NCBI GenBank assembly: GCA_963929435.1
Contig: CAWVIV010000014.1
Location: 40,349 to 104,348 of the forward strand
Direction: 5' to 3'
From: an uncultured Bacilli bacterium
GTDB lineage: Bacteria > Bacillota_I > Bacilli_A > RF39 > UBA660
Length of the DNA stretch: 64,000 nt
This document shows, in pieces, positions 46,782 to 64,000 of this stretch. The translations under genes were made by a program, and so were the position numbers. Under the pieces are notes generated by a model, which worked only from the letters and a program-made list of their open reading frames with translations, did no database searches and was not told the origin of the DNA. Numbering within the stretch: the stretch's first letter is position 1; each line of letters begins with the position of its first letter.

Positions 46782-46939
46782 ATTTTTCAAGCCTCCTTTC
46801 ATAAATTGGAAGGAGACGACACTCATATTGAAATGTTCCTATAAATATATTATCAAATTAAATTTTATATAGCAAGAGAAAATGTAATAAATTAGTTACG
46901 AATTTTCGTAATATTAAATGTATTAAGGCAGTGATATTT

Positions 46940-47827
46940 ATGATTCTTTTTGTAAGTGGTAGATGTGATATAGTCGCTTTCTATACTCCTTGGTTTATGA
47001 ATAGATTAAAAGAAGGATATGTTGATGTTAGGAATCCTTTTTATAAGAAACAAGTGAGTAGAATATACTTTGATGATGTAGATTTAATATATTTTTGTAC
47101 TAAAAATCCTAGACCTATTGTTCCTTATTTAAAAGAGATAAAGAAACCTATTTTATTTAATGTAACTATTACTCCTTATAAAAGAGATATTGAACCTAAT
47201 GTATTTAATAAAGATAAGATAATTGAAAGTGTTATAGAGATATCTAAAATAATAGGAAGTGGCAATATTTATGTTAGATATGACCCTATCTTTTTAAGTG
47301 ATAAATATAATTTAGATTATCATATTAAAGCTTTTTCTAGACTTTGTAGTTTACTTAATGGTTATGTTAAACATATTATTGTTTCTTTTATAGATGATTA
47401 TAAAAATGTAAGAAAGAATATGGGAGTACTTAGAGTTAAACCTTTTACTAGTAATGACTTAAAAGAAATAGGAATATCTTTTAGTTCTATTGCAAGTAGT
47501 TATAATATGACAGTACAAACTTGTTTTGAAAAAGAAAATTTAGTAGAATATGGATTTATTAAAGGAGATTGTTTAGGAGTAGAACTTGCTAAAAGACTTA
47601 CTGGTAAGACTAAATTTAAGAAAAGTAGGATTAGAAAAGGTAATCTTTGTAATTGTGTAGAAATGGTTGATATTGGTTATTATAATTCTTGTAAACATTT
47701 TTGTAAGTATTGTTATGCTAATTATAGTGAGGATGAAGTAATTAGTAATTCTATGAAACATAATGTAAATTCATCTTTGCTTATTGGTGAATTAGAAAAA
47801 GATGATATAATAAAAGTGAGAAGGTGA
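46940..47827 (+). CDS. DUF1848 domain protein
   Basis: MILFVSGRCDIVAFYTPWFMNRLKEGYV..VRNPF N-terminus and a C-terminal Cys cluster CNCVEMVDIGYYNSCKHFCKYCYA. ATG 46940 is preferred over GTG 46931. Confidence 0.65.
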   Translation: MILFVSGRCDIVAFYTPWFMNRLKEGYVDVRNPFYKKQVSRIYFDDVDLIYFCTKNPRPIVPYLKEIKKPILFNVTITPYKRDIEPNVFNKDKIIESVIEISKIIGSGNIYVRYDPIFLSDKYNLDYHIKAFSRLCSLLNGYVKHIIVSFIDDYKNVRKNMGVLRVKPFTSNDLKEIGISFSSIASSYNMTVQTCFEKENLVEYGFIKGDCLGVELAKRLTGKTKFKKSRIRKGNLCNCVEMVDIGYYNSCKHFCKYCYANYSEDEVISNSMKHNVNSSLLIGELEKDDIIKVRR

Positions 47828-48318
47828 TAGTTGTGAGAATTAATTATTCTGATGAAAAAATTGTTGATAGTGATAAGTCTATATTTTTAGCAGGTCCTAC
47901 ACCAAGAGGGGAAAATGCTAAGTCTTGGAGAGTAGATGCTTGTAAAAAATTAGAGGAGTTAGGCTTTGATGGTGTTGTTTATGTTCCTGAATATTCATCT
48001 TGGAAGCATAAAGAAGATTATGTAGATCAAGCAATGTGGGAAAGAGAAGGATTAACTAAAGCTTCTATTATAGTATTTTGGATACCTAGAAGTTTACCTG
48101 ATATGCCTGCATTTACTACTAATGTAGAATTTGGATATTGGTTGCACTCAAAAAAGGTGATTTATGGAAGACCAGATGATGCAGTTAAAATTAAATATTT
48201 AGACTGGTTATATGAGGTGGATTATAATGAGAAACCTTTTAACAATTTAGATGATTTGTTGAAGAATGCGATTAAAAAGGTAAATGATAAAGAGAAAATT
48301 TTATCTAAGGATAAATAG
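47824..48318 (+). CDS. Nucleoside 2-deoxyribosyltransferase-like protein
   Basis: IFLAGPTPRGENAKSWR...GFDGVVYVPE pattern of the Nuc_deoxyri_tr2-type family. GTGA overlap with the DUF1848 gene. Confidence 0.55.
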   Translation: MIVVRINYSDEKIVDSDKSIFLAGPTPRGENAKSWRVDACKKLEELGFDGVVYVPEYSSWKHKEDYVDQAMWEREGLTKASIIVFWIPRSLPDMPAFTTNVEFGYWLHSKKVIYGRPDDAVKIKYLDWLYEVDYNEKPFNNLDDLLKNAIKKVNDKEKILSKDK

Positions 48319-50980: not shown

Positions 50981-50990
50981 ATATTTTTTG

Positions 50991-51166
50991 TAGCAAAATA
51001 GGCCTTTTTACATATTTTAATGTAGAGGTGAATATTATGAATGAGCGAAGAGTAACTGGTGTGGTGGTTGATGCTGGACATGGAGGAATAGGAGTATCCC
51101 AAAAATAGGGAAATGACTATGAATGCTGATAAATACAAGGAAAAGAGATACTTTAGTAAGAAAAGT
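50991..51166 (+). repeat. att-like repeat copy 1: 96-bp amidase 5' segment (50991-51086) plus 80-bp conserved island left end (51087-51166)
   Basis: The 96 bp is identical by eye to 62585-62680. The whole 176 bp matches 59051-59226 with 4 mismatches. The truncated ORF reads MNERRVTGVVVDAGHGGIGVSQK*. Confidence 0.9.
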
Positions 51167-51209
51167 GTCTTTTTTAGTGGTATAATAGCTTGTGAGGTGA
51201 AATTAATTA

Positions 51210-51779
51210 ATGGATGAAAGAACATTTGTGGAATTAGGAGTAAAATTAACTGAAGTTGCTACAAGAAATGGCGCAGCTTTAATTACAGATAGAATTCGTA
51301 CTGCGAAAGCAAAAAAGGAAAGTAAAGAAATAATTAATGAACTAGAAGAAATTATATCAGATTTATTATCGGACAAATCTGAAATTCAAAGAATAGCTCA
51401 GGCTTATGAACAAGAACTAGTTTCTCAAAAGATTACAGAGGAAGATATAAGGTATATTACAGATAATTTATTACCACTATTTACTGAATTTATTCCTGAT
51501 AAAGATAAAAATCAAATCGAACAATTAAAGAAAATTTTATCTGTAGAAACTTTAACAATTATGCAATTAATTGGTTTTAATTACAAACATGCTATTGGAG
51601 AGCCTTTAACTTTACTTTGTAGAAAGTATATTGAATCCAATATTCCTATGGATTCAAAAATAAATGTTGATTATACAATGGCTATGGCAACACTTGCTAA
51701 AGATAAAGAAGCTACAAAAAGATTTTACAATTTACTTGGTAGAGAAATGCCTGAAGAGAATAATTCAGATGAAATATGA
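51210..51779 (+). CDS. Hypothetical helical protein (189 aa), first gene of island A
   Basis: Extended -10 TGGTATAAT at about 51177 and GTGAGGTGA RBS. A terminator CACCAT-aaataata-ATGGTG plus T-run follows. No motif recognised. Confidence 0.55.
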   Translation: MDERTFVELGVKLTEVATRNGAALITDRIRTAKAKKESKEIINELEEIISDLLSDKSEIQRIAQAYEQELVSQKITEEDIRYITDNLLPLFTEFIPDKDKNQIEQLKKILSVETLTIMQLIGFNYKHAIGEPLTLLCRKYIESNIPMDSKINVDYTMAMATLAKDKEATKRFYNLLGREMPEENNSDEI

Positions 51780-51897
51780 TAAAAAGTTTTGATTTTGAGC
51801 ACCATAAATAATAATGGTGTTTTTATTTTAAATGAAAGCGAGGTAGATATTTATAAATTTAAATTATGCAATATTTAGAAGTGAACCTATTTTTACA

Positions 51898-53130
51898 TTG
51901 AATGATTTAGCACAGATAGGTTCTCATAATAAAAGGGAGAAGAAAGCTTATAATTCTAATCCTGATATAAATAAAAATTTAAGTAAAAATAATATAGAAT
52001 TAGTACCCTTGACAGATAAATATGTTAAGGGTTTTTATAATTTAACTAAAGAATATAAAAAAGAATATGATGAGAGAATGAAAACAGAACGTGAAGATAG
52101 AAAGAAAAATTTAAAACAGATGTTAGATAAGTCAAGAAATGTAGTTGCAGATGAATTATTATTTACTGCTAAATTTGAATTTTTTGATAATATAACAATA
52201 GATGATATAAAAGAGTGGTCTAATACTTGTATGGAGTTTGTTTATGAAGATTTGGGTTATAAAAAAGAACAAGTTTTGCATAGTGTAATTCTTTTAGATG
52301 AAAAGACACCACATATTCATTGTGTAGTTGTTCCTTTAGTTAGAAAGTTTTATAATAGAACTAAAACAGAAAGATATACTATATCTAAGAAACAATACAT
52401 TAAAAATAATATTCATTTATCAGAATTATAAGATAAATACTATCAAAGACTAACTAGTAAAGGTTATGATTTAGAACTAGGTATTAAAGGAAGTATAGCT
52501 AAACATCAAAAAGTCAGAGAGCTTAAAAAAACTACTAGATATTATGAACAGAAAGTAGATGTTTTAAACTCTAAAATAGATGAAACTATGAAGGAATTTA
52601 ACGAGAAAAAAAACTACCCAAAAATATTCCTTTTAATAAAACTCATGGTCTAGTAGAAAAGGAAACTTTTGATAGTATGAATAAAGTAATTAAAGAAACA
52701 AAAAAACGATATATTTAGAGCCAAAAATTAAAACTCTTTTTAATGAAGTAGATAGTTTTACCAAAAGCCATCAGAGTTTAGAAAAAGAAAATCAATATAT
52801 GAAAAGGAGATTAAAGCATTGACTACTAGAAATCAAAATCTTACAAAAGAAAATAATACTTCAAAATCCTACATTAAAGCCATATTATAGGCAATAAAGC
52901 ACTTTTTTAGGTATTTATTACAAATTGGTAATGAACCTACAAAAGAAACTACTGCACGCGAGATAAAGTAATATTATGATAATAAAGATTTTGATAGTAA
53001 TGATGCTTATGATATTTCAAATGACACTACTAAAGAAGATGAACTATTTGATTATGATAATATAGCTTGTTATTATAAAGCAAAAAAAGATAACGTTGGA
53101 GATAAAGATGATTTTGAGTTAACAAGGTAG
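51898..53130 (+). pseudogene. Decayed MobV/Pre-family relaxase
   Basis: The N-terminal 177 codons have MobV features (NPDINKNLSKNN, HIHCVVVPL). An in-frame TAA at 52429 interrupts ..LSEL*DKYYQRLTSKGYDLELGIKGS.., and the rest continues in other frames after A-run frameshifts. Confidence 0.6.
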
Positions 53131-53193
53131 ATAGAATTATGGTATACTAGTGATATAAAGATTGGTTTAAGTGTCAGAAGTGGAGTGAATTTA

Positions 53194-56100
53194 ATGAATC
53201 AAGAAATTTCTAATAAGGAGAAAATAATATCACTATATAAATTTATTATAGAGTTTTGTAAGAGCAAACAAAAAATTATATGTAACGACAATGATTATTT
53301 ATGGAAATATCAGATTAGTAATGTTCCACAAGATAATGAAAATATTAGTATATTGTATAAGGACAAAGTCGAATTGGAAGATGAGATACTTGATGATAAT
53401 AGTTTGGATTACTTATTAAAAGTTCATAAGCCTGAATTTGAAAAATGTCCTGAACCTGATGCATCTTTTAAAAAGTGGCTTGTAAAAGGTTGGGATTCTT
53501 ATAGAAATATTGTTCAAGTTAAAGAGAAAATAGAATATGAAAATAATCAGAACAATTCTGAAAAAGTAATAGAAATGTTTACAGATGATTTGGAACGTGT
53601 GAGTGCATATAAAGTATGGCTTGAAAAAAGAAAACAATGGGTTGAAAGGCAATTAAAAATAGAAAGGACTAGAGATTTCTTTACTATTTTATATATGAGG
53701 TATGTAGACTTACAACGCGATTCTGAAACTACTGAGTTAGTACTTGCTAATGGTTATATAACTGATAAGAATAACGAAAATATATGTCATCCTGTGTTGA
53801 CAAAAAGACTAAACATGAATTTTGATGCTAATGAAAATACTATATATGTAATGGACACTGACGCTAGAACTGAATTATACTCTGAACTGTTTCAAGTTAT
53901 GGATGATATTGATCTTGATTCATTAACTACATTAAATTCTGATTTGATGGTACATGATTATCATCCAATGGATAGAAATGATACACCAAACTTTTTAAAA
54001 ATACTTGTTCATAACTTGAGTTCTGACAGTAAATATGTAGATGGTCAAGATGATATTTCTGAAAATAGAATTAATATGTTTTATAGACCATGTTTAATTA
54101 TGCGAAAAAGAATGGATGGAACAATAAAAACTACTGAACAGATTATTAAAAATATAGAAGAAACTGGTTTTATTCCAAGCCATTTGATAGATATCATTAG
54201 TGGTGGCAAATTAGAAAAACCTGAGGAAACTGAAGAAACTATTGAGGAATCGTTAGCTAAAGTCGGTGGAGAGAGTGTTGATATATTATTATCTAAAGAA
54301 GCAAATAGGGAACAGTTAGAAATTGCAAAAAGAATAGGTAAATACAATGCAGTATTGGTGCAAGGGCCTCCTGGTACTGGGAAAACGCATACAATAGCAA
54401 ATTTAGTTGGACACTTTTTGGCTCATGGGGAAAGTGTTTTGGTTACTAGTTATACAAAAAAAGCTTTAACTGTTTTAAAAGACAAATTGCCAAAAAACAT
54501 TCAAAGTTTATGTGTGTCTGTTTTAGATGATTCAAATGAAGATATGGAAGACTCTATTGATGGTATAACGGATTATATGTCTAGGACCACTTCATTTGAA
54601 TTAAAACATAAAATGGAAGAATTGAAAGAAAGTCGATTAAATGTTATTAAGGAATTGGCTTCTGTAAGAAGAAAAATATTTAATATTATTAATAGTGAAT
54701 ATAGAAGTATTGTTTTAGATGGCGAAGAAATTTCTCCTATAGATGCGGCTTGCTTTGTTCAACAAAATAAAGAAAGATTGTCTTATATTGATGGTAGAGT
54801 AAAATTGTATTCTCCATTACCGTTAACAATAAATGAGTTTAATTATTTATATGGAACAAATTCTAAAATTTCTTATGATGAAGAAAAAGAACTTAATTAT
54901 AAATTGCCAGCTCCAGCAAAATTAATTCATCCTGATAAATTTGAAAAATTATTAGCAATAATTGATAATTCAAAGAAGAAAATTGAGGAAATTGGAAATT
55001 TAAAAAAATGGACTATACAGATTAATGATGATTTGTTTTTTGAAACTAATTTTGGTAATTTTTATATTACAAATTATAATGCTAGTGATATAACTGAATT
55101 GAAAAATTATATTGATGGTTTTTCTAATTTTGATAATTGGGTAAAAGCAGTTTGTTGTGATGGAAAAAGAGGTGGTGCTCATAAAAAGAGATGGCTAGAT
55201 TTAATTAATGAGATAAAAACTACTTCAAAAATAAGTGAAGATTTTATATATAATCATTTTGGTAAAAAAGTTTCTACAAAAAATAATAGTAATGTTTGTG
55301 ATTATAAAATAGGTTTGCGAAAATTAAAAAAAATCTTGGATAGAAAAGGGAAAATTGGTAAAATCGATTTAATTTTAAATAATGAATTTAATTTATTGCT
55401 ATCAGAAGTTCAAGTTAATGGTAAACAAATTACAACAAAAGAAGAATGTGATTATGTACTTGATTATATTGATTTAATAGAAGCGAGAAGTAAACTTGCT
55501 AATTTATGGGATAATCTGTTATCTTGCTATGGAGTTACAAAATTTTATGATTTAGATAATTCAGAGCCGGAAAGAGTTGCTGAAAAATGGATTGATATTA
55601 TAGTTAAATATCTAAATTGGTATGATAAGGAATATAAGAATTTAACTAAATACTTGGAAAAAGCCAATTTTCCTTATCAAATTATATTACAATTGAATGA
55701 TTTAGATAAAGATATTGATCATATAAATAAAATATTTGATTCTTTACAAAATGTAATTCCTTATTTGTTGAATATATGCGAAGCAAAAATTGCTATTGAT
55801 AACGCCAATCAAGAAATAGAAAATTCAGTAACTGTTTTGGATGACAACGGTTTAATAAATTCTTCAGTTTGTATTAATTTAAAAAAATCATTGAAGAATT
55901 ATGATAATGAAAAATATTTAGAGTTTTTTAGACAATTAGAAGATTTATATCAAAAATACGAAATTTTAAGTAAAAGAAATTCTTTATTGGAAAAATTAGA
56001 ATCAGTTGCACCACAATGGGCAAGCGATATTAGAAACAGGCGTGGTATTCATGGTTTAAGTGAAACTCCTACTAATATTCAAGACGCTTGGAAATTTAAA

Positions 56101-58419
56101 CAATATTTAAGTATTTTAGATGATATGACAAAAGAGTCATTAGATGATTTGCAAAAAACGAGTCAACGGTTAAGTTCAAACTATAGGAAAATCACTGAAA
56201 AATATGCAGGGATATGTGCTTGGTATAATTTGTTGGCAAGAACTGAATGTGATATTGATATGAAACAAGCGTTGAAAGGATGGGAGCTAACAATTAAAAA
56301 AATTGGTAAAGCTACTGGGAAAAACGCTCCTAAATATAAAGCAAAGGCTCGTGAATTAATGGCAAAATGTCAAAATGCTGTTCCTTGTTGGATAATGCCT
56401 ATGAATAAAGCTATTGAATCTTTAAAACCTGGTGAAAACGAATTCGATGTTATTATCATTGATGAAGCGAGTCAATCAGATACATCTTCTTTAGCAATAG
56501 CTTATTTTGCAAAAAAAATGATAGTTGTTGGAGATGATAAACAAGTAAGTCCTATGGCAGTTGGTGTAGAAGTTGATAAGATTAATGCCTTAGAAAAAAT
56601 GTTTATTAAAGATAAAATTCCAAATTCTCATTTATATAGTGCTAAAACTTCATTATATGATATTGCTGCTACAACTTTTCAACCATTAATGTTAAAAGAG
56701 CACTTTAGATGTGTGCCAGAAATAATTGGATTTAGTAATATGCTTTCATACGATTTTAAAATAAAACCACTAAGAGATTCGAATGATACTGATTTATTGC
56801 CTTCTGTTATAAATTATAGAGTACAGGGTAAGAGAATTGGAAAAACTAATAGAGTAGAAGCTGAAACTATTATTTCATTTATAAAAGGTTGTTTAAATAT
56901 TAAAGAGTATGAAGGTAAAACCTTTGGGGTAATTTCATTATTAGGTGATGAACAGGTTAGATTAATTGAACAGTTATTATATCAATATATTGATATACGT
57001 GATATTGAAGAAAGAAAGATTTTGGTTGGAAACGCTTCTAATTTTCAGGGAGATGAACGAGATGTTATTTTCTTATCAATGGTAGATAGTAGCTCAGATA
57101 AAGGTCCATTACCTTTGCAAGGAAATGGAGTTGAAGATTCAGTTAAAAAGAGATACAACGTTGCTGTTAGTAGAGCACGTGATCAAGTATGGGTGGTTAA
57201 TTCATTAGATTCAGCAAATGATTTAAAATCGCTGGATATTAGGAAAAAATTATTAGATTATGCCACAAATCCTAAGGCATTTTTATTACAGTCAGATGAA
57301 GTAAAAAACAAATCTGATTCAGTTTTTGAAGAGCAAGTTGCAAAAAAATTGATATCTCAAGGTTATCATATTGTTCAACAATATCCAGTTGGAGCCTATA
57401 GGCTAGATATAGTTGTAATATGTGAAAATAGAAAGATTGTAATAGAATGTGATGGAGAAAGGTATCACACTGGCGAAGAAAAAATCAAGGAAGATATGCA
57501 ACGTCAAGCTATTTTGGAACGTATTGGTTGGAGATTTATAAGAATAAGGGGAAGTCAATTTTTTAAAAACCCTGAAGCTACAATGAATCAAGTTTTTGAA
57601 GAATTAGAATCATATAAAATTTATCCAGAAAGTATAAATATAAGTAATGAAGAAAGAACAAGTGAACTGTTTGAAAAAGTAAAAAATGAATCTTCAAAGT
57701 TTTTATTAGAAATACATCAAAAGGATAATGATGGCAATTTGGATGATATATTGTATGCTTTGGATAATAAATCTTATAAAGTTTCTGATAGTCAAAAAAA
57801 TAATGATACTTTATTAAAAAACAAAATTGATTCAATTAGTATAAAGCAAAATAAGCAAGTTAATGAAACCATATTTGATAAAGATAGTGATTTATTAGAT
57901 TTAGAGTTTGGTGAGAGTCAATTTAAATATATGGTTTTATTTAGTGAGGGAGTAAGTAGAAAGGATATTTCATTATATTATAATGTTGCCTATGATACGG
58001 TAAAGAAATCTTTGCAGACGGTTTCTGAAAAATATCATCAACCTTATGTTGAAAAATGTATAAGTAGCTTTATTGAAAAATATAAAGGTAGTACTGAATA
58101 TGATGAAATAATTAATATGTATTTGAAGTGGAATCAAAATAGAGAAAATGAAAAGTTTAATGATAATGTTTTTTCGACAACTTCTAATTTAGAATTAAAA
58201 CATGATAATGATGATTTTATAACTGATTTAAAGAAAAATAATTTTAAATACATTGATAATAGAGAAAAATCTGGAATTGTTTGGATTATTCATAATGATT
58301 CAACTTCTGAATTAATAAAGAGTGTTTTAAGTAAATATAAGTATCCATATACATTTGAGCGAAGAGGCTCAATTGTTACTGAAAATAAACCTGCATGGAG
58401 AGTAATGTTTAAGTATTAG
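53194..58419 (+). CDS. Giant (about 1741 aa) DUF4011-type SF1B (Upf1/Mov10-like) helicase fused to a Vsr/DUF559-like PD-(D/E)xK endonuclease and a C-terminal extension
   Basis: Walker A GPPGTGKTH (about nt 54364) and motif II VIIIDEASQ (about nt 56449) are separated by about 700 aa. Further motifs: VGDDKQVSP, LKEHFRCVPEIIGFSN, FQGDERDVIFLSMV, NVAVSRARDQVWVV. Nuclease module: YRLDIVVICENRKIVIECDGERYH..GWRFIRIRG. ATG 53194 is preferred (8 nt after GGAG); GTG 53185 is possible. Confidence 0.85.
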   Translation: MNQEISNKEKIISLYKFIIEFCKSKQKIICNDNDYLWKYQISNVPQDNENISILYKDKVELEDEILDDNSLDYLLKVHKPEFEKCPEPDASFKKWLVKGWDSYRNIVQVKEKIEYENNQNNSEKVIEMFTDDLERVSAYKVWLEKRKQWVERQLKIERTRDFFTILYMRYVDLQRDSETTELVLANGYITDKNNENICHPVLTKRLNMNFDANENTIYVMDTDARTELYSELFQVMDDIDLDSLTTLNSDLMVHDYHPMDRNDTPNFLKILVHNLSSDSKYVDGQDDISENRINMFYRPCLIMRKRMDGTIKTTEQIIKNIEETGFIPSHLIDIISGGKLEKPEETEETIEESLAKVGGESVDILLSKEANREQLEIAKRIGKYNAVLVQGPPGTGKTHTIANLVGHFLAHGESVLVTSYTKKALTVLKDKLPKNIQSLCVSVLDDSNEDMEDSIDGITDYMSRTTSFELKHKMEELKESRLNVIKELASVRRKIFNIINSEYRSIVLDGEEISPIDAACFVQQNKERLSYIDGRVKLYSPLPLTINEFNYLYGTNSKISYDEEKELNYKLPAPAKLIHPDKFEKLLAIIDNSKKKIEEIGNLKKWTIQINDDLFFETNFGNFYITNYNASDITELKNYIDGFSNFDNWVKAVCCDGKRGGAHKKRWLDLINEIKTTSKISEDFIYNHFGKKVSTKNNSNVCDYKIGLRKLKKILDRKGKIGKIDLILNNEFNLLLSEVQVNGKQITTKEECDYVLDYIDLIEARSKLANLWDNLLSCYGVTKFYDLDNSEPERVAEKWIDIIVKYLNWYDKEYKNLTKYLEKANFPYQIILQLNDLDKDIDHINKIFDSLQNVIPYLLNICEAKIAIDNANQEIENSVTVLDDNGLINSSVCINLKKSLKNYDNEKYLEFFRQLEDLYQKYEILSKRNSLLEKLESVAPQWASDIRNRRGIHGLSETPTNIQDAWKFKQYLSILDDMTKESLDDLQKTSQRLSSNYRKITEKYAGICAWYNLLARTECDIDMKQALKGWELTIKKIGKATGKNAPKYKAKARELMAKCQNAVPCWIMPMNKAIESLKPGENEFDVIIIDEASQSDTSSLAIAYFAKKMIVVGDDKQVSPMAVGVEVDKINALEKMFIKDKIPNSHLYSAKTSLYDIAATTFQPLMLKEHFRCVPEIIGFSNMLSYDFKIKPLRDSNDTDLLPSVINYRVQGKRIGKTNRVEAETIISFIKGCLNIKEYEGKTFGVISLLGDEQVRLIEQLLYQYIDIRDIEERKILVGNASNFQGDERDVIFLSMVDSSSDKGPLPLQGNGVEDSVKKRYNVAVSRARDQVWVVNSLDSANDLKSLDIRKKLLDYATNPKAFLLQSDEVKNKSDSVFEEQVAKKLISQGYHIVQQYPVGAYRLDIVVICENRKIVIECDGERYHTGEEKIKEDMQRQAILERIGWRFIRIRGSQFFKNPEATMNQVFEELESYKIYPESINISNEERTSELFEKVKNESSKFLLEIHQKDNDGNLDDILYALDNKSYKVSDSQKNNDTLLKNKIDSISIKQNKQVNETIFDKDSDLLDLEFGESQFKYMVLFSEGVSRKDISLYYNVAYDTVKKSLQTVSEKYHQPYVEKCISSFIEKYKGSTEYDEIINMYLKWNQNRENEKFNDNVFSTTSNLELKHDNDDFITDLKKNNFKYIDNREKSGIVWIIHNDSTSELIKSVLSKYKYPYTFERRGSIVTENKPAWRVMFKY

Positions 58420-58517
58420 AGTTGTATTACTACTTGTATTTTAGCATAGTGAAGATTTAAAAATTACAGAGTTTTTATTAAGTGATTGACTTTATTATGA
58501 GAGGAATGAATTTTATA

Positions 58518-58769
58518 ATGAAACAAGATTTTAAATATGAGATTATAAATAATATAGGAGTTATTTCTGAAAATAATACGTGGGCAAAGGAATTAAATCG
58601 TGTTAGTTGGAATGGTAATGAACCAAAATATGATATTAGAGATTGGTCAAAAAATCATGAAAAAATGGGCAAGGGCATTACTTTATCTGAAGAAGAACTT
58701 AGAAGTTTAAAAAAAATATTGGATGAAGAAATAAAACTATTGGACGAAGAGGCTAGTAACGACGATTAA
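58518..58769 (+). CDS. PC4/YdbC-like ssDNA-binding protein
   Basis: MKQDFKYEIINNIGVISENNTWAKELNRVSWNGNEPKYDIRDWSKNHEKMGKGITLSEEE closely parallels my recollection of Lactococcus YdbC (FKFEIVEHL..KEINRVSFNG..KFDIR.WS..H.KMGKGITLS.EE). Confidence 0.7.
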   Translation: MKQDFKYEIINNIGVISENNTWAKELNRVSWNGNEPKYDIRDWSKNHEKMGKGITLSEEELRSLKKILDEEIKLLDEEASNDD

Positions 58770-59050
58770 ACTAAAATTCCATTTTAGTAACACGCTATGA
58801 TATTGGCAGAGCTAATAACGCTGTGTGCAAAGGAAGTTCCCTTTTGACTCCTAAATTAACGACAAATTATAAAGTGCTATAATATAATTCTGTTGAATAA
58901 AAATAGCCTTATTGCCTAAAAAGCAAAAAGGTTATTTTTTATTAAATTTTAGGTTTTATTGTTGTTAATATTTTACTTAGATTTTCTAATGTTTTATAAT
59001 TAGAAAGTCTTTTATTTTTTTTAGATATTAAGCTTAATGCTTATAAATAG

Positions 59051-59226
59051 TAGCAAAATAGGCCTTTTTACATATTTTAATGTAGAGGTGAATATTATGA
59101 ATGAGCGAAGAGTAACTGGTGTGGTTGTTGATGCTGGACATGGAGGAATGGGATTATCCCAAAAATAGGGAAATGACTATGAATGCTAATAAATACAAGG
59201 AAAAGAGATACTTTAGTAAGAAAAGT
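59051..59226 (+). repeat. att-like repeat copy 2: 96-bp amidase 5' segment (59051-59146) plus 80-bp conserved island left end (59147-59226)
   Basis: One mismatch (59126) against copies 1 and 3 in the 96-bp core. It is preceded by AAATAG, as copy 3 is. Confidence 0.9.
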
Positions 59227-59286
59227 ATATTTTATTATAAAAATATTAGCACTAATCTATATTAGGTAACTATTTGTAAAAATATG

Positions 59287-59329
59287 TTGACAACCCTAAA
59301 TATTAGTGATAAATTAATTACTAATATTT
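59287..59329 (+). promoter_or_regulatory. Promoter with overlapping inverted-repeat operator at the head of island B
   Basis: TTGACA (59287), 17 nt, TAAATT (59310), with a TGa extended -10. AAATATTAGT (59298-59307) is inverted as ACTAATATTT (59320-59329). Two more ATATTAG half-sites lie at about 59243 and 59262. Confidence 0.5.
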
Positions 59330-59343
59330 GAAGAGGTGGAGTT

Positions 59344-59433
59344 ATGAGTGTGATTTTTAAAGGAAAATACAATATTAAAACTATTATTATGATTACAGTA
59401 TTTTCTTTAATCATGCTTTTTATTTTTAAATGA
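59344..59433 (+). CDS. 29-aa hydrophobic peptide (MSVIFKGKYNIKTIIMITVFSLIMLFIFK)
   Basis: GAGGTGGAG RBS 4 nt upstream. Single TM segment. A terminator follows. Confidence 0.45.
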   Translation: MSVIFKGKYNIKTIIMITVFSLIMLFIFK

Positions 59434-59443
59434 CATTAATATT

Positions 59444-59472
59444 GAAGCTTATAATAGCTTCTGTTTTTGTTT
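59444..59472 (+). terminator. Terminator after small peptide gene
   Basis: GAAGCT-tataat-AGCTTC followed by TGTTTTTGTTT. Confidence 0.55.
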
Positions 59473-59551
59473 AGTAAGAGATATTTAGGTAATTGCATTA
59501 ATAGTTGGTTAAGTTTACATCTTAACGAATATATAAATGGAGGTGATTAAT

Positions 59552-60766
59552 TTGAAAAAATGTAATTTTGATTATTTATTTAATACTCCTAATATTGAGA
59601 ATATAGAGACTTTTATTAATCAACTTACTAATAAGTATATCTTTGAATTAAAAAAAATAGAATTGTTAAATAGTAAGATTTTATTAAGCTACGATAAAGA
59701 TAAATATATTGAATTAATAAAGAAACATAAAAATATTGTATTGTCACTTATTAAAGAAGTTATCAACTTTTTTCCACAGTTATCTAATGTGCCTCATATT
59801 GTTTTTATACATGGTAGTTTTGCTAAAACTTTAAACAGGATTAATAGCGATATAGATTTAAATATTTTATATCCTAATAATTTTAAAAGTGAAATATTGC
59901 CAATCGAAGAAATAATTTCAATTATTTTGCAAAAAGTTGTTGGATATAGTGGTAGGGATAAAATACATACTATGATGCTTTATACATGTAATGATTTGAA
60001 TGATAGTTTGGTTGAATCTACTGAAGAATGTACTATTTCGTTTCCAAACAAACAAATTTATAAGTATTACTGTCGACCAAATTATGATGAAATAATGTAT
60101 AAAATAAAAAATTCTTCTAGAGATTATAATGATTTTTTAAATTATATAAGAAATAATATTACTACTGGTAAGTGTGAAGAATGGTGTTATTCTTATGAAC
60201 AATTAATTACTAATTGTGAGGACTGCAATATATATGATGCGTTAAATAGTATTGATGAAGATAATGTAGAAAGAACGAATTATATTAATTATAATAAGTT
60301 AATAGAAAAATTAAAGAAGAAAATGGATGAATATAGTTTTGATATTAATAACGTAGATACAATTAGTGATGTTAATCATAATTTAAAGGTTAAAAATTTA
60401 GGATTTATATACAAAACATTATCATTAATAAGAAGATATTTATTTATTAATGAAAATCCAGTAAATGGTTTGGATTTCTTTGAAATATTCGATAAACAAG
60501 AATTTATTAAGTTATTTTCTAGCGAAGAGTTGGAGAATATAAAAACTAATATTTTTAGATATCTTTGGCAACTTTCAAGACTGGAAAATTTGTTTATAAG
60601 TAGGAATATTAATTTTAGTTCTAGAAATTATGATAGTTTTGAAACTGAATTTGTTTGTCAATTATATAATAATTTATATAATGAAGATTTAATTTGTGTT
60701 CAAAATGAATCTACTGATAATCTTCATAAATCTTTGAAAAAAGTATTAACAAGAATTGAAATATAG
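59552..60766 (+). CDS. Pol-beta-superfamily nucleotidyltransferase with long helical C-terminal region
   Basis: FIHGSFAKTLNRINSDIDLNILY matches G-S-x10-D-x-D. TTG 59552 is preferred (6 nt after GGAGGTG); the listed ATG 59537 is the alternative. Confidence 0.7.
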   Translation: MKKCNFDYLFNTPNIENIETFINQLTNKYIFELKKIELLNSKILLSYDKDKYIELIKKHKNIVLSLIKEVINFFPQLSNVPHIVFIHGSFAKTLNRINSDIDLNILYPNNFKSEILPIEEIISIILQKVVGYSGRDKIHTMMLYTCNDLNDSLVESTEECTISFPNKQIYKYYCRPNYDEIMYKIKNSSRDYNDFLNYIRNNITTGKCEEWCYSYEQLITNCEDCNIYDALNSIDEDNVERTNYINYNKLIEKLKKKMDEYSFDINNVDTISDVNHNLKVKNLGFIYKTLSLIRRYLFINENPVNGLDFFEIFDKQEFIKLFSSEELENIKTNIFRYLWQLSRLENLFISRNINFSSRNYDSFETEFVCQLYNNLYNEDLICVQNESTDNLHKSLKKVLTRIEI

Positions 60767-60774
60767 GAGGAAAT

Positions 60775-61860
60775 ATGAGTAAAATAGTAATGACGATGCC
60801 AATAAAGCCACAGAAAGAAACTAATATAGGTATGTATATTGCTCCAACATTGATGAATGTTTTGAGTGATATTCTATCATGTGATAGTGTGATGGCTATT
60901 AATCTATTAAATACATATAAAGATAAGGATTCAGAATTAAAAACTTTTATAGATGATTTAGATCGTCAAGGAATAATATATAATAATTTATTTATTGATA
61001 AAGATCATGCCTGTGAAATATTATCTTTAATTCAAGAATTAGTATATGATGGTTTTGTGAAAAAATCGAATGAAGAAATTTTTAGATGTGATTGTGGTAA
61101 AGTTGATATTTTGAAACAAGGAATTAACTCTAATATAAGTAAATTATACTATGAAAAAAATGGTACATATTATTGTAAAGAGTGTGGAAGTGAATGTAAA
61201 TCTTTTAGAGAAGAGGTATTGACGCTTGAATTGTCAAAAGATATTGATGATTCAATATTAATAGTACCAACATTTTTAAAAAATGATGTTAAGCATTTGA
61301 GTAAAACTTTTAAAGGTGGCAAATTACTTATTTCAAAGCAACGCGATACAGGTTATCAACTAATGGTTGATAATAAAAAATTTAATATTGATATTGATTT
61401 TCTTTGGACTAATTATTTTAGGCTTTTTGATAACGAACAGATTATAATGCTTGCTAGTAATCATCAAATATATCAAATGTATTTATTAAATTATTTAAAT
61501 AAAATTATTTCTGGCAATGAGATTTGTTTTGTAGCTAATCCTTATATGAATAAATCAAATGTTATGAATCCGTTAGCAGAATATGAAAAAACAGAAGATA
61601 GTATTTATAAAAAATTGTTTATTCTATATAATTTAAAGTGGAGAAACAAAAATTGTGATTGGTCACCTAGTATAATAGATTTTTTAAGTAATATAAGTAC
61701 TACAAGAAGAAATAATTTATATAGAGTTATAGAGAGTTGTGGAAAGAAAATTGATGAAAGTAGGCTACCTTTAGATTTATATTTAGAAAGTATTTTACAA
61801 AAGGAAATAAATATGCAACGAAATATTCCTGAATCAAAAAAGTTAGTTAAAAAAATGTAA
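60775..61860 (+). CDS. Zinc-ribbon protein resembling a degenerate class Ia aminoacyl-tRNA synthetase catalytic core (MetRS/IleRS-like), HIGH/KMSKS absent
   Basis: AGGAGG RBS. Motif order: ELVYDGFVKKSNEEIFRCDCGK, YYCKECGSEC, LLISKQRDTGY (cf. ISRQR.WG), DIDFLWTNYF (cf. YVWFDA). The HIGH position reads NIGMYIAP. Similarity was judged by eye only. Confidence 0.45.
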   Translation: MSKIVMTMPIKPQKETNIGMYIAPTLMNVLSDILSCDSVMAINLLNTYKDKDSELKTFIDDLDRQGIIYNNLFIDKDHACEILSLIQELVYDGFVKKSNEEIFRCDCGKVDILKQGINSNISKLYYEKNGTYYCKECGSECKSFREEVLTLELSKDIDDSILIVPTFLKNDVKHLSKTFKGGKLLISKQRDTGYQLMVDNKKFNIDIDFLWTNYFRLFDNEQIIMLASNHQIYQMYLLNYLNKIISGNEICFVANPYMNKSNVMNPLAEYEKTEDSIYKKLFILYNLKWRNKNCDWSPSIIDFLSNISTTRRNNLYRVIESCGKKIDESRLPLDLYLESILQKEINMQRNIPESKKLVKKM

Positions 61861-61893
61861 TAGTATTAAAATAGTTATGGAGATGGTGATATT

Positions 61894-62493
61894 ATGTATA
61901 GTGTGTTATTTAGTAAAATTGAATTTGGTATGGATTTAGTAGTAGAACGGTTAAAAGAGTTTGTTAAACCTGATTATAAAGTAGCAATTTTTCCATGGGC
62001 TTTTCCTGTCGAGATAACAAGTGAAGAATTTGAGAAAGAGTATTTTCCTATAGATGGTAGAAGATATAATAAATACTATACTGAATTAAAAAAAATAGGT
62101 ATTAGTAAAGAAAATATTAGAGTATGTAACCCTTATAAAGATACTAGAAATGATCTTATTGAAATTATCCAAAATAGTGATATTTTACTTTTGCCAGGTG
62201 GAAATCCTGAAATGTTTTTTAAAAAAGTTTTACATGATACGGAATTAATATATTATATTAAACATTTTAAAGGAATAATTATTGGTGAGAGTGCAGGGTG
62301 TGAGTTACAATTAAAAAGATATTTTATTACTGCTAAAAATAATTATTATAAGTACTTTGCATTTTATGATGGATTTGGAGTGTTAGATGATCCTTTTTAT
62401 ATGGATGTCCATTCAATAAACAATAAGAGATATTTAGCAAAATTACAAGAAGTTGCTAATGATAAAAATAAAACGTGTATATGCTATTTTTGA
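61894..62493 (+). CDS. Peptidase S51 (dipeptidase E/cyanophycinase-like) family protein, 3' end frameshifted
   Basis: ILLLPGGNPEMFFKK and IIIGESAGCE (nucleophile elbow). The family-typical C-terminus RVYAIFDDGALIYNRDS..FK* is in another frame up to 62584. One extra A in GATAAAAATAAAACG (62461-62475) explains this. Confidence 0.7.
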   Translation: MYSVLFSKIEFGMDLVVERLKEFVKPDYKVAIFPWAFPVEITSEEFEKEYFPIDGRRYNKYYTELKKIGISKENIRVCNPYKDTRNDLIEIIQNSDILLLPGGNPEMFFKKVLHDTELIYYIKHFKGIIIGESAGCELQLKRYFITAKNNYYKYFAFYDGFGVLDDPFYMDVHSINNKRYLAKLQEVANDKNKTCICYF

Positions 62494-62584
62494 TGATGGT
62501 GCACTTATTTATAATAGAGATTCTAGTAAATTAGAAATATTTGGTAATGTATTAACTTTTGTACCAAAATGTAATTTTAAATAG

Positions 62585-62680
62585 TAGCAAAATAGGCCTT
62601 TTTACATATTTTAATGTAGAGGTGAATATTATGAATGAGCGAAGAGTAACTGGTGTGGTGGTTGATGCTGGACATGGAGG
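62585..62680 (+). repeat. att-like repeat copy 3 (native 5' end of the intact amidase gene)
   Basis: Identical by eye to 50991-51086. It continues into the intact ORF. Confidence 0.9.
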
Positions 62681-64000
62681 TGCGGACCCTGGTGCTGTAA
62701 GTGGTGGTTTACAAGAGAAAGATTTTACATTAGAAGCTTCTTTATATATGGCTGATAGATTAAAAGAGTTAGGTATACCTGTTGTTTTAACTAGAGATTA
62801 TGATGAGAATATAAGTAGAACAGAAAGACTTAGACGTGCTAATGAAGCTTTTGGTGGTAGTCCTAATGCTATACTTATATCTAATCATATAAATGCTGGA
62901 GGTGGAGAAGGGGCTGAAGTTATTTATGCTTTACGTAATAATTCTACTTTAGCACAATCTATCTTGGAAGAAATAGGTAGTGAAGGACAAATTATGCGTA
63001 AATACTATCAAAGAAGACTTCCTGAAGATCCATCAAAAGACTACTATTACATTATTAGAGAAACTACTCCTATGCAGTCAGTGTTAGTAGAATATGGTTT
63101 TATTGATAATGCTAATGATAGAGTTAAATTACAAAATGATTTATTAAACTATGTGGAAGCGGTAGTTAGAGCGATAGCAGAGTATGCTGGTGTTCCTTAT
63201 ACTCCTCCTGAGGGTAGTGGTAATAATTTCTATACTGTAGTAAAAGGTGATAGCTTATGGAGTATTGCTAATCGTTTCGGGGTTACAGTCCAAGCTTTAA
63301 GAGATGCTAATAACTTAACTAGTGATGTGTTAAGTGTAGGACAAATTTTAAGAATACCTGGTAGTAATGAAGGTGATGAAATTGTTCCTCCAAGTGGTAA
63401 TGTCACTTATACTGTGCAAAGAGGAGATAGCCTTTGGAGCATAGCAAGTCGTTATGGAATAAGTGTTAATGATTTAAGACGTGCCAATAATCTTACTAGT
63501 GATACTTTAAGTATAGGGCAAGTTTTAATAATCCCAGGAGTAGGTAGTGGTAATGATAATATTACAGGACCATCTACTACTTATACTGTTGTAAAAGGTG
63601 ATAGCTTGTGGAGCATTGCCAATCGTTTTGGAGTTACAGTCCAAGCTTTAAGAGATGCTAATATTTTAACTAGTGATGTGTTAAGTGTAGGGCAGGTATT
63701 AACTATACCAGGTGTTAGTGGAGAAGAAGATAATGGTGAAGATGAGGATAATGGAGCAGTCTTTTATTATACTGTAGAGCGGGGAGATAGTCTTTGGAGT
63801 ATAGCAAGACGTTTTGGCGTTACGGTTCAAGAAATAAGAGATGCTAATGATTTAACGAGTGATACTTTAAGTGTTGGACAATCTTTAATAATTCCAGGGA
63901 TTAGTGCAGGAGATGACTTAGAAGATAATGAAGAAAATGATACAGTTCCTACTACTTATACAGTAGCCTCTGGTGATAGTCTATGGAGCATTGCTAATCG
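62631..64000 (+). CDS. N-acetylmuramoyl-L-alanine amidase (Amidase_3) with at least 5 C-terminal LysM repeats, 3' end outside window
   Basis: Not in the ORF track because no stop lies inside the window. AGAGGTGA RBS. VVVDAGHGGADPGA, NHINAGGGEGAEV, then repeated Y(T/Y)V(V/Q/E)(K/R)GDSLWSIA.R(F/Y)G modules from about 63231. Confidence 0.9.
   Translation, partial: MNERRVTGVVVDAGHGGADPGAVSGGLQEKDFTLEASLYMADRLKELGIPVVLTRDYDENISRTERLRRANEAFGGSPNAILISNHINAGGGEGAEVIYALRNNSTLAQSILEEIGSEGQIMRKYYQRRLPEDPSKDYYYIIRETTPMQSVLVEYGFIDNANDRVKLQNDLLNYVEAVVRAIAEYAGVPYTPPEGSGNNFYTVVKGDSLWSIANRFGVTVQALRDANNLTSDVLSVGQILRIPGSNEGDEIVPPSGNVTYTVQRGDSLWSIASRYGISVNDLRRANNLTSDTLSIGQVLIIPGVGSGNDNITGPSTTYTVVKGDSLWSIANRFGVTVQALRDANILTSDVLSVGQVLTIPGVSGEEDNGEDEDNGAVFYYTVERGDSLWSIARRFGVTVQEIRDANDLTSDTLSVGQSLIIPGISAGDDLEDNEENDTVPTTYTVASGDSLWSIAN

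Follow-up and report, generated by a model that had tools for sequence, protein, structure and literature searches.

The window analyzed in this study is a 64,000-nt stretch of DNA from an uncultured Bacilli bacterium (contig CAWVIV010000014.1, positions 40,349 to 104,348 of the forward strand). It carries a cassette of three adjacent genes that encode a DNA polymerase beta-type (Pol-beta) nucleotidyltransferase (NTase), a protein whose predicted fold is the catalytic core of methionyl-tRNA synthetase (MetRS) and which lacks both signature motifs of the class I synthetases (here called pseudo-MetRS), and an S51-type hydrolase. The same three families recur side by side across species in an arrangement far beyond chance, and the trio matches no described system. 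We tentatively favor the view that the module makes and cleaves an aminoacyl-nucleotide, a reading in which we have somewhat less than even confidence. The three genes are:

59537-60766, + strand: Pol-beta NTase gene, 409 aa as the annotated open reading frame (ORF)
60775-61860, + strand: MetRS-derived pseudo-synthetase gene, 361 aa
61894-62584, + strand: S51-type hydrolase gene; the annotated ORF, 61894-62493 (199 aa), is frameshifted

The initial annotation of this DNA, which was made from the sequence alone, described three co-directional genes with gaps of 8 nt (NTase to pseudo-MetRS) and 33 nt (pseudo-MetRS to S51), and the ORF coordinates agree with it. The translations of the trio contain the motifs HGSFAKTLNRINSDIDL, NIGMYIAP, FRCDCGK, CKECGSEC, ISKQRDTGY, FLWTNYF and GESAG.

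Co-occurrence of the Three Gene Families

The scan for pseudo-MetRS loci used one genome per species and yielded 59 loci, 58 of them with a callable pseudo-MetRS gene; a partner was counted if it lay within 3.5 kb of that gene. The NTase is present in 51/58 loci, the S51 gene in 49/58 and both are present in 44/58. When the scan is restricted to the 37 well-flanked loci (at least 2.5 kb of sequence on either side), the corresponding numbers are 35, 34 and 32. Two of the five well-flanked exceptions have a truncated pseudo-MetRS, and the other three carry a GNAT acetyltransferase in place of S51. Since the same three families adjoin one another at this frequency in both sets, chance adjacency is excluded. 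Absence of co-occurrence had been named beforehand as a possible refutation of the trio, and the 44 species-level loci speak for it instead.

The order of the genes is not fixed, with NTase–pseudo-MetRS–S51, NTase–S51–pseudo-MetRS and pseudo-MetRS–S51–NTase all being seen. Where the NTase gene directly precedes the pseudo-MetRS gene, the two overlap by 4-41 nt at 33 of 42 junctions. The NTase and the pseudo-MetRS are also found fused in both orders, NTase first in P0122 (hhalign 99.8%) and at locus L069, and pseudo-MetRS first in P0125, and a fusion of S51 to pseudo-MetRS occurs in P0116. No similarity to the NTase was found in the C-terminal half of P0084 (879 aa), and P0087 shows no S51-like sequence in its N-terminal part. 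No other gene family is common to more than 15 loci.

The Pseudo-MetRS

The initial annotation had read the 361-aa protein as following the motif order of a class Ia aminoacyl-tRNA synthetase (aaRS) core and had asked for structure prediction to check the fold, the lack of an aaRS-like fold being counted as a possible refutation. The AlphaFold2 (AF2) model, built from a 23-sequence alignment, has a predicted local distance difference test score (pLDDT) of 93.3 and a predicted template modeling score (pTM) of 0.91, and in a Foldseek search of the PDB its top 50 matches are all MetRS (E 2.5e-13 to 2.7e-10, TM 0.55-0.68 on the query), so that the predicted fold is indeed MetRS-like. Sequence comparison gives a different picture. 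Identity to MetRS is about 12%; an hhalign comparison with genuine MetRS aligned only a 50-column stretch (residues 57-106, probability 4%); a profile of the family searched against all PDB sequences retrieved no synthetase, the best match being UGPase (E 0.11); and no Pfam, NCBIfam or PADLOC family matches the protein. On the basis of the model, the kinship to MetRS is thus visible only through structure and motif order. The order of motifs is that of MetRS, with T-M-P-I…N-I-G-M, a CxC…CxxC knuckle, I-S-K-Q-R (ISRQR in MetRS) and F-L-W following one another, and the N-terminus, T-M-P-I-K-P-Q-K-E-T-N-I-G-M, reads against T-x-P-x…H-I-G-H of MetRS.

The two class I signatures, which the initial annotation had reported as missing from the window protein, are missing throughout the family alignments. 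T-N-I-G-M stands at the position equivalent to HIGH, with no conserved His in either 23 close or 36 distant members, and in all members aligned the place of KMSKS, after strand E249-255, is taken by N-P-Y-x-N and then a variable segment. Beyond the core the AF2 model has only ~90 aa of helices and no Anticodon_1 or Anticodon_3 Pfam match was obtained, both of which are on record for the genuine MetRS encoded at locus L005. Anticodon recognition is therefore unlikely. The zinc knuckles noted at first sight correspond to a single conserved CxC…CxxC knuckle, whose four cysteines (C105, C107, C134 and C137) stay unchanged even in members with as little as 18% identity. In the wider family P9 and D206 are likewise invariant and N43, D75, P165, S187, R190, D208 and P256 nearly so (down to 18% identity). 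No Tyr is invariant. D206-x-D208 forms a new acidic pair.

When placed on the strand order of the model, the conserved residues fall at the C-terminal ends of strands (P9/K11 after E3-7, N43 after E37-42, D75 after E71-74, N204/D206/D208 after E201-205, N229/H230/Q231 after E222-228 and P256 after E249-255) and line the classical Rossmann active-site crevice. This position indicates that the crevice is under selection though the ATP motifs are gone, and the clustering of conserved residues within it argues that the pseudo-MetRS is a re-tooled binder or enzyme and not the product of a decaying pseudogene. The family is sizeable, with 377 clusters at 50% identity in an exhaustive profile search. 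The only source name retrieved for it is ‘hypothetical protein’ (cluster member MFV0275147.1); the other proteins that were looked up are nameless.

The NTase and the S51-Type Hydrolase

The assignment of the first protein to the Pol-beta NTases is borne out by two Pfam families above their cutoffs, Polbeta (PF18765, 29.7 bits, cutoff 26.9) and NTP_transf_2 (PF01909, 29.3 bits, cutoff 21). The protein consists of N-terminal helices, a core with G93-S94 and D105-x-D107, and a long helical domain; G93, S94, S104, D105, D107 and W216 are invariant in a 33-sequence alignment. A length of 405-409 aa had been given initially. The 409-aa ORF is present, and translation probably starts at TTG 59552, giving 404 aa, because GGAGGTG lies 5 nt before it (59540-59546), the relatives P0184-P0186 are 404 aa long and align over 99% of the query, and the N-terminus of more distant homologues reads M-x-K-C-N-F. 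The NTase diverges fast; in other clades it is 19-34% identical to the window protein, and in short forms of 245 and 334 aa the helical domain is largely missing.

The AF2 model of the NTase (pLDDT 92.3) has only three meaningful fold matches in the PDB, the N-terminal adenylyltransferase domain of GlnE (AT-N, 1v4a, E 2.4e-4), DrrA (6yx5_B, E 2.6e-4) and the C-terminal domain of GlnE (AT-C, 3k7d, E 5.6e-3), with TM 0.43-0.49, Foldseek probability 1.0 and identity of 8-11%. ANT(4′), LinB and MNT are far weaker matches (probability 0.1-0.3 for ANT/Lnu), and no enzyme of the cGAS/DncV/CdnE or poly(A)/CCA type is among the Foldseek matches. ClCdnE was matched over the G-S/D-x-D stretch only (E 1.3e-4), and no significant fold match for the NTase came from BFVD. 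By its modeled architecture the NTase thus resembles the adenylyltransferases GlnE and DrrA, with which it shares the overall layout and the G-S…D-x-D core; the similarity is modest, however, and there is no glutamine synthetase/PII or Rab context here. We take this as a lead for protein AMPylation, not as proof. The analogy to MenT/AbiEii toxins drawn in the initial annotation finds no support in the NTase fold, which is GlnE/DrrA-like instead, a result that bears on the analogy and not on tRNA as a target.

The third protein appears by sequence to be an S51-type Ser-His hydrolase (class I glutamine-amidotransferase-like). The window protein, shortened by a frameshift, matches Pfam Peptidase_S51 with E 8.8e-4 and a score of 19.4 against a gathering cutoff of 23.9; the fused homologue P0116 reaches 59.2, and PF03575 is on record for most homologues. 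GGNPEM, G-x-S133-A-G (GESAG) and D-V-H173 are invariant in a 26-sequence alignment, and there is weak similarity to Lmo0363 and PdxT. The S51-like protein is strikingly conserved (mean column identity 65%) and has an invariant Tyr-rich motif, RYFITAKNNYYKYFAFYDGFG. The initial designation as an S51 serine peptidase was right as to the type of enzyme and overlooked the frameshift, which results from an extra C at 62474 (a 1-nt insertion relative to L012, L013 and L021 in the DNA alignment) and leaves 199 aa where intact homologues have 221-234 aa. The conserved C-terminus (VYAIFDDGALIYNR...) lies in the next frame after 62474, and the remainder of the gene (KRVYAIFDDGALIYNRDSSKLEIFGNVLTFVPKCNFK) runs on in the +1 frame to TAG 62582-62584. 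The extra C reflects either a genuine pseudogene or an assembly error; the NTase and pseudo-MetRS genes of the window are intact. Additional S51 sequences are seen at related loci, with the pseudo-MetRS followed by a tandem pair of S51-like genes (230 and 234 aa) in L012 (11120-12548) and a 74-aa S51 fragment 5′ of the NTase in L013 (8213-8437), which suggests repeated recombination at the cassette ends.

Substitutes for the Third Gene and Accessory Genes

In several branches the S51 gene is replaced by an unrelated one:

S66 peptidase (MccF/LdcA family): L071-73
199-aa alpha/beta Ser_hydrolase: L078-82
251-aa alpha/beta hydrolase, weak S15/S33 matches only (E 2e-4 to 4e-3): L084-85
RimJ/RimL-like GNAT, S51 absent: L042/44/46

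As a chemical kind, these non-homologous substitutes all act on an aminoacyl or amide bond. Their interchange argues for one shared bond as the target and not for diverse toxic effectors. The GNAT of L042 (9400-9957) also hits the NCBIfam model NF040702, ‘isoleucine--tRNA ligase, N-acetyltransferase domain-containing’ (E 3.5e-8), so that there is a known case of a genuine class Ia synthetase fused to a GNAT domain of similar type.

The genes that are fused to the module or intercalated in it encode nucleotide or tailoring enzymes. The pseudo-MetRS is fused to a phosphoribosyltransferase (PRTase) in P0105 and to a Cof-type HAD phosphatase in P0054, and six loci have a HAD gene after S51. At L005 a fusion of a sulfotransferase to the NTase (681 aa) comes directly after CysD, CysNC and TauE. 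Other loci have a NodU-type carbamoyltransferase (L074), a ribokinase-like PfkB kinase and an NPP phosphodiesterase (L077), a glycerate kinase (L071), NUDIX (L059/61/68) or a GT2 glycosyltransferase (L042). In L027, L028, L031 and L032 an RlmN/Cfr-like radical SAM adenine methylase lies between pseudo-MetRS and S51, an insertion that hints at an adenine ring in the substrate; the protein (282 aa, e.g., L032 2593-3438) matches RlmN positions 74-348 and lacks the N-terminal domain (~70 aa). The proteins encoded after pseudo-MetRS in L005-7 (310 aa) and L045-49 (296 and 140 aa) have no Pfam or PDB matches and are mutually unrelated.

The block at L005 (358-11670; also in L006 and L007) is co-directional throughout and reads Rel, CysD, CysNC, TauE, sulfotransferase-NTase, S51, pseudo-MetRS, the 310-aa protein and MetRS. 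This last MetRS is complete (HIGH, KMAKS, four Cys knuckles) and could be a resistant second copy or a plain housekeeping gene.

Comparison with Known Systems

The initial annotation could not assign the trio to a known system, and neither can we. A search of PADLOC-DB v2.0.0 gave no significant match, the best being E 0.0065 for the NTase (against PDC-M05A) and 0.023 for S51, with none for the pseudo-MetRS, and a full-text literature search in which the terms were required jointly found no paper describing the combination. Together with Pfam and NCBIfam, these searches show that the trio matches no described system. A type VII toxin-antitoxin (TA) system of the MNT-HEPN kind is not indicated, as the cassette has no HEPN family match and the NTase reaches 21.6 bits for NCBIfam MntA, where the cutoff is 60. 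No AbiEii match was obtained for the NTase in Pfam or PADLOC, and its structural neighbors are GlnE and DrrA and not MenT/AbiEii. Likewise, no PADLOC model for cyclic oligonucleotide-based antiphage signaling systems (CBASS) was matched and the NTase has no CD-NTase fold match.

Among synthetases, the pseudo-MetRS shares with MetRS the catalytic-core fold, the single zinc knuckle in the connective peptide and echoes of the motifs T-x-P-I, I-S-K/R-x-R and F-L-W. It differs in having N/x-I-G-M for HIGH and N-P-Y-x-N for KMSKS, no recognizable anticodon domain, a length of 361 aa, the invariant acidic pair D206-x-D208 and a Pol-beta NTase as partner. Of the MetRS paralogues, those that occur with a cupin and a lysine N6-monooxygenase later became known as hydrazine synthetases. 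Their role in secondary metabolism was spotted through this gene neighborhood (PMC2922099), and the paralogue described by Aravind et al. in 2010 keeps the adenylation residues, has an archaeo-eukaryotic double zinc ribbon and is strictly linked to the cupin and N-hydroxylase (PMC2922099). The pseudo-MetRS belongs to a different family, since none of these adenylation residues, double zinc ribbon, cupin or N-hydroxylase were found here.

Synthetase relatives that have left translation offer partial parallels. AcmF (AlaRS-like, ascamycin) and SbzA (IleRS-like, SB-203208) aminoacylate a nucleoside sulfamate or sulfonamide outside translation (PMC12945691). They are synthetase-derived makers of aminoacyl-adenylate mimics, and a likeness to them is seen at L005, where the sulfotransferase-NTase stands beside genes for the synthesis of 3′-phosphoadenosine 5′-phosphosulfate (PAPS). 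However, AcmF is class II, SbzA is an IleRS of full length in which HYGH and AMSKA are retained, and no Pol-beta NTase accompanies either of them; both belong to large actinomycete clusters and not to a three-gene cassette. Cyclodipeptide synthases (CDPSs) are class I aaRS-derived proteins that have lost the ATP signatures and use aminoacyl-tRNA instead of ATP and amino acid (PMC2922099, PMC12945691). They resemble the pseudo-MetRS as class I-derived Rossmann proteins without ATP-binding signatures but have a TyrRS/TrpRS-like (class Ic) core, no zinc knuckle and no NTase or hydrolase partner, and the structure of the pseudo-MetRS matches MetRS and not CDPS.

The cassette may also be compared, by analogy and not as a homologous system, with microcin C. 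The combination of a nucleotidyl-transfer enzyme with a cleaving or acetylating enzyme is alike in both, and S66 and RimJ/RimL-type GNAT replace S51 in other branches of the family studied here. In microcin C, immunity comes from MccF (an S66 peptidase) and MccE (a GNAT), which cleave or acetylate the aminoacyl-nucleotide. The differences are that the cassette has no ThiF/MccB match, no conserved precursor peptide and no exporter, and that its hydrolase is mostly S51.

Hosts and Genomic Contexts

Nearly all hits come from metagenome-assembled genomes (MAGs) of uncultured gut ‘Bacilli/Tenericutes/Mycoplasmatota’, such as CAG:884, CAG:822 and Candidatus Coprosoma. A distant homologue (26% identity) is found in a Candidatus Absconditabacterales genome with an alternative genetic code (L070).

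In the window's nearest clade (75-98% identity) an integration hotspot holds the module as a mobile 3.4-kb cassette, and the flanks vary by genome, with mobile or defense genes. Avs2 lies downstream in L018 and DitA in L033. The surroundings in L016 include a PrimPol-helicase and those in L008 MobL with a resolvase, and the window copy shares its att site with a Hhe/ProA/PDC-S37-like helicase-nuclease island. Large serine recombinases are found near about eight loci.

Genes for intact synthetases lie near some loci, namely MetRS (L005, L015), HisRS (L026), AlaRS (L030, L055) and IleRS (L077); by a rough estimate their enrichment is not significant (3-4 within two genes vs. about 2.4 expected). 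In L026 the trio lies between rel and hisS, a place that in Firmicutes is normally occupied by dtd. No tRNA gene is consistently linked to the module.

A Possible Make-and-Cleave System and Its Alternatives

We infer the substrate, the product, the division of labor and the biological role of the module from folds, co-occurrence, fusions, swaps and genomic contexts. The pseudo-MetRS may bind an amino acid or an aminoacyl-adenosine-type ligand, which could be free or delivered as aminoacyl-tRNA, a feeding of the pocket like that of AcmF, SbzA and the CDPSs. The NTase would supply the nucleotidyl-transfer chemistry that the synthetase core can no longer do, and together they would make an aminoacyl-nucleotide conjugate that looks like an aminoacyl-adenylate. 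The hydrolase (S51, elsewhere S66 or alpha/beta) would then cleave the aminoacyl bond, or the GNAT acetylate the amino group instead, for processing or self-protection. The product might act as a translation-directed antimetabolite against phages or competitors. Such use in conflict is favored within the make-and-cleave reading because the mobile clade sits in a hotspot that also collects anti-phage genes. The aminoacyl-nucleotide hypothesis in the style of MccF, raised in the initial annotation, gains circumstantial support from the S66, alpha/beta hydrolase and RimJ-like GNAT swaps, while the function itself stays at the level of inference. A narrower proposal, that the module is a new class of conflict system in which pseudo-synthetase and NTase make an aminoacyl-adenylate mimic or cap aminoacyl-tRNA so as to halt translation under phage attack or in competition, and the swappable hydrolase or acetyltransferase is the antidote, seems to us unlikely.

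Several observations weigh against make-and-cleave chemistry or its use in conflict. No exporter or precursor peptide is conserved across loci. Pol-beta NTases normally attack with a hydroxyl and, to our knowledge, none makes aminoacyl-adenylates. GlnE and DrrA AMPylate protein tyrosines, not small molecules. The deeper clades are in stable chromosomal settings and not in defense islands, and in 15 loci a Rel gene (HD-RelA_SpoT-TGS) lies directly 5′ of the NTase, often overlapping it. An NYN RNase gene 5′ of the module in L078/79 hints at RNA or translation, as do this Rel gene, the HisRS, AlaRS and MetRS neighbors and the RlmN-like enzyme. Searches by tblastn gave no match in 50,697 phage records, 72,556 plasmid records or IMG/VR, and the restriction to one group of gut Bacilli/Tenericutes-like MAGs is unusual for a freely exchanged defense system. 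Moreover, the frameshift in S51 beside intact NTase and pseudo-MetRS genes fits an indispensable antidote poorly, unless it is an assembly error.

The hints at RNA lead to an alternative in which the pseudo-MetRS docks the acceptor end of a tRNA, the hydrolase deacylates or the GNAT acetylates it and the NTase extends or caps the 3′ end, which would stop translation, as a toxin or abortive-infection system or in regulation or quality control. Such steps are known from GNAT toxins, which acetylate aminoacyl-tRNA, and from MenT toxins, which extend the 3′ ends of tRNA. The scaffold, a MetRS catalytic core with its connective-peptide zinc knuckle, would suit this role, and the loss of HIGH and KMSKS parallels that in the aminoacyl-tRNA-binding CDPSs (PMC2922099, PMC12945691). 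Rel with its TGS domain next to the module in the 15 loci, the trio between Rel and HisRS in L026, the RNA adenine methylase inside four operons and the NYN RNase in L078/79 are all consistent with it. Nevertheless, by Pfam and fold the NTase is neither AbiEii/MenT-like nor CCA-adding-like, the ~90 aa of helices after the core with no Anticodon_1/3 match make anticodon recognition unlikely, no tRNA gene accompanies the module consistently, the ~70-aa N-terminus of RlmN is missing from the RlmN-like protein, and the Rosetta-stone fusions (PRTase, HAD, sulfotransferase) involve small-molecule enzymes. We regard a tRNA-directed system as having a small but appreciable chance of being correct. A further alternative is detoxification or salvage, in which the pseudo-MetRS binds an imported aminoacyl-nucleoside or adenylate mimic from other gut microbes, the NTase inactivates it by nucleotidylation in the manner of ANT and Lnu enzymes, the hydrolase or GNAT cleaves or acetylates it and salvage enzymes recycle the parts. 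Enzymes typical of salvage are represented by PRTase, ribokinase-like kinase, HAD, NUDIX and NPP, and the hydrolase, S66 and RimJ-like GNAT match resistance enzymes for aminoacyl-nucleotide antibiotics, such as MccF and MccE; the closest GNAT profiles include antibiotic N-acetyltransferases and GNAT-bearing IleRS, no exporter is conserved and the hosts are small-genome gut Bacilli. Yet conserved importers are absent as well, the NTase does not resemble ANT or Lnu (probability 0.1-0.3), three coupled or fused enzymes would be unusual for one detoxification, and the sulfotransferase with PAPS synthesis, carbamoyltransferase, radical SAM and GT2 enzymes point to anabolic tailoring, which makes salvage quite improbable.

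The least weight is given to an AMPylation switch of the type VII TA or GlnE kind, which we consider very doubtful. Here the NTase would AMPylate the hydrolase, the pseudo-MetRS or a cellular protein, with the pseudo-MetRS as an amino-acid or nucleotide sensor and the hydrolase as the regulated effector or toxin. It is favored by the only significant structural neighbors of the NTase, the tyrosine AMPylators GlnE (both domains) and DrrA, along with weak MntA and MNT profile matches, tight gene overlaps and the contrast between a fast-diverging NTase and a highly conserved (65%) S51-like protein with its invariant Tyr-rich motif. But the replacement of the third gene by unrelated folds leaves no general AMPylation site there, and the pseudo-MetRS has no invariant Tyr across the wider family. 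A HEPN partner is missing, the score for MntA (21.6) falls far short of the cutoff of 60, the 245- and 334-aa NTase forms lack much of the helical domain, and the nucleotide and tailoring accessory genes stay unexplained.

Whichever reading applies, the pseudo-MetRS documents another exit of an aaRS from translation, as a new and sizeable synthetase-derived family of 377 clusters with no Pfam model, both class I signatures lost and a strongly selected crevice. The obligate pairing, in some lineages fusion, of a motif-less MetRS core with a Pol-beta NTase suggests split aminoacyl-nucleotide chemistry, which has no biochemical precedent, and in kind the module may be likened to synthetase-derived proteins and NTases that make aminoacyl-nucleotide-type compounds and have a hydrolase or acetyltransferase partner. 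Should the product be an aminoacyl-adenylate mimic, uncultured gut bacteria would hold in this module a compact source of new aaRS inhibitors. Action on tRNA or as an immune system would be categorically new, and phage defense would introduce a new principle in bacterial immunity, with a synthetase fold as the scaffold for making a weapon.

Cassette Borders and Surrounding Genes

The cassette and its neighbor are delimited by direct repeats, and the initially proposed limits of 59227 and 62584 fit those at 59050-59233 and 62584-62767. The remaining features of the insertion site are:

about 51174-59049 (genes 51210-58769): island A, neighboring cargo at the same site
59050-59233, + strand: left border, a copy of a 97-nt repeat (59050-59146) and an 87-nt segment
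59344-59433, + strand: small hydrophobic ORF upstream of the NTase, 29 aa, MSVIFKGKYNIKTIIMITVFSLIMLFIFK
59444-59461, + strand: terminator-like hairpin followed by a T-run, between the 29-aa ORF and the NTase gene
62584-62680, + strand: right border, the true copy of the 97-nt repeat, which spans the promoter and 5′ end of the Amidase_3/LysM gene (ATG 62631)

The 97-nt repeat comprises the promoter of the Amidase_3/LysM gene together with the initial 50 nt of the gene itself, and repeat search and alignment located three copies, starting at 50990, 59050 and 62584. The 87-nt segment follows copies 1 and 2 alike and so is also part of the left end of the neighboring island (50990-51173). Each duplicated copy of the 97-nt repeat leaves a 23-codon remnant ORF (MNERRVTGVVVDAGHGGMGLSQK). 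This pattern indicates two unrelated cargo islands inserted in tandem at one att-like site; no integrase was found in either island A or the cassette (island B). The same site is filled in L013 and L021. The GC content of the cassette is 20-25%, compared with 33-37% for the downstream amidase gene, whose product has an Amidase_3 domain and four LysM domains.

The trio had been described as the whole cargo of the cassette; its three genes are present, as are the 29-aa ORF and the hairpin. The ORF is strongly hydrophobic, with a good Shine-Dalgarno sequence (GAGGTGGAG) and a promoter-like TTGACA-17-TAAATT at 59287, and resembles a small membrane peptide or type I toxin. Its membership in the module is doubtful. 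It is kept solely in L012 and L013, whose loci are nearly identical, and a conserved small ORF 5′ of the NTase is absent from the other loci, many of which have gaps of only 3-17 nt to the upstream gene. For this reason the ORF was rejected as part of the module, and also as a precursor peptide in the style of microcin C. The hairpin is the sole terminator-like site between 58700 and 62800, where 0.3 would be expected, while a promoter scan was uninformative in this AT-rich DNA (36 found vs. 34.9 expected).

Island A encodes a 189-aa unknown protein, a 177-aa fragment of a Mob_Pre relaxase, a 1744-aa helicase and a 95-aa PC4-like single-stranded DNA-binding protein. The 1744-aa protein combines a superfamily 1 (SF1) helicase with a C-terminal MTES_1575/DUF559 nuclease domain and matches PADLOC PDC-S37 (1e-61), MkoC and Hhe as well as NCBIfam ProA and Hhe, all below the full-length cutoffs and, for the NCBIfam models, well below. 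Island A thus looks like a candidate anti-phage island on a mobilizable element. The chromosomal genes around the hotspot encode an M18 aminopeptidase, a GH25 lysozyme and an arylsulfotransferase. Upstream of the hotspot (46931-48318), the gene for a DUF1848 protein (298 aa) overlaps by 4 nt that for a nucleoside 2-deoxyribosyltransferase-like protein (164 aa), and the two are possibly a nucleotide- or DNA-modification pair.

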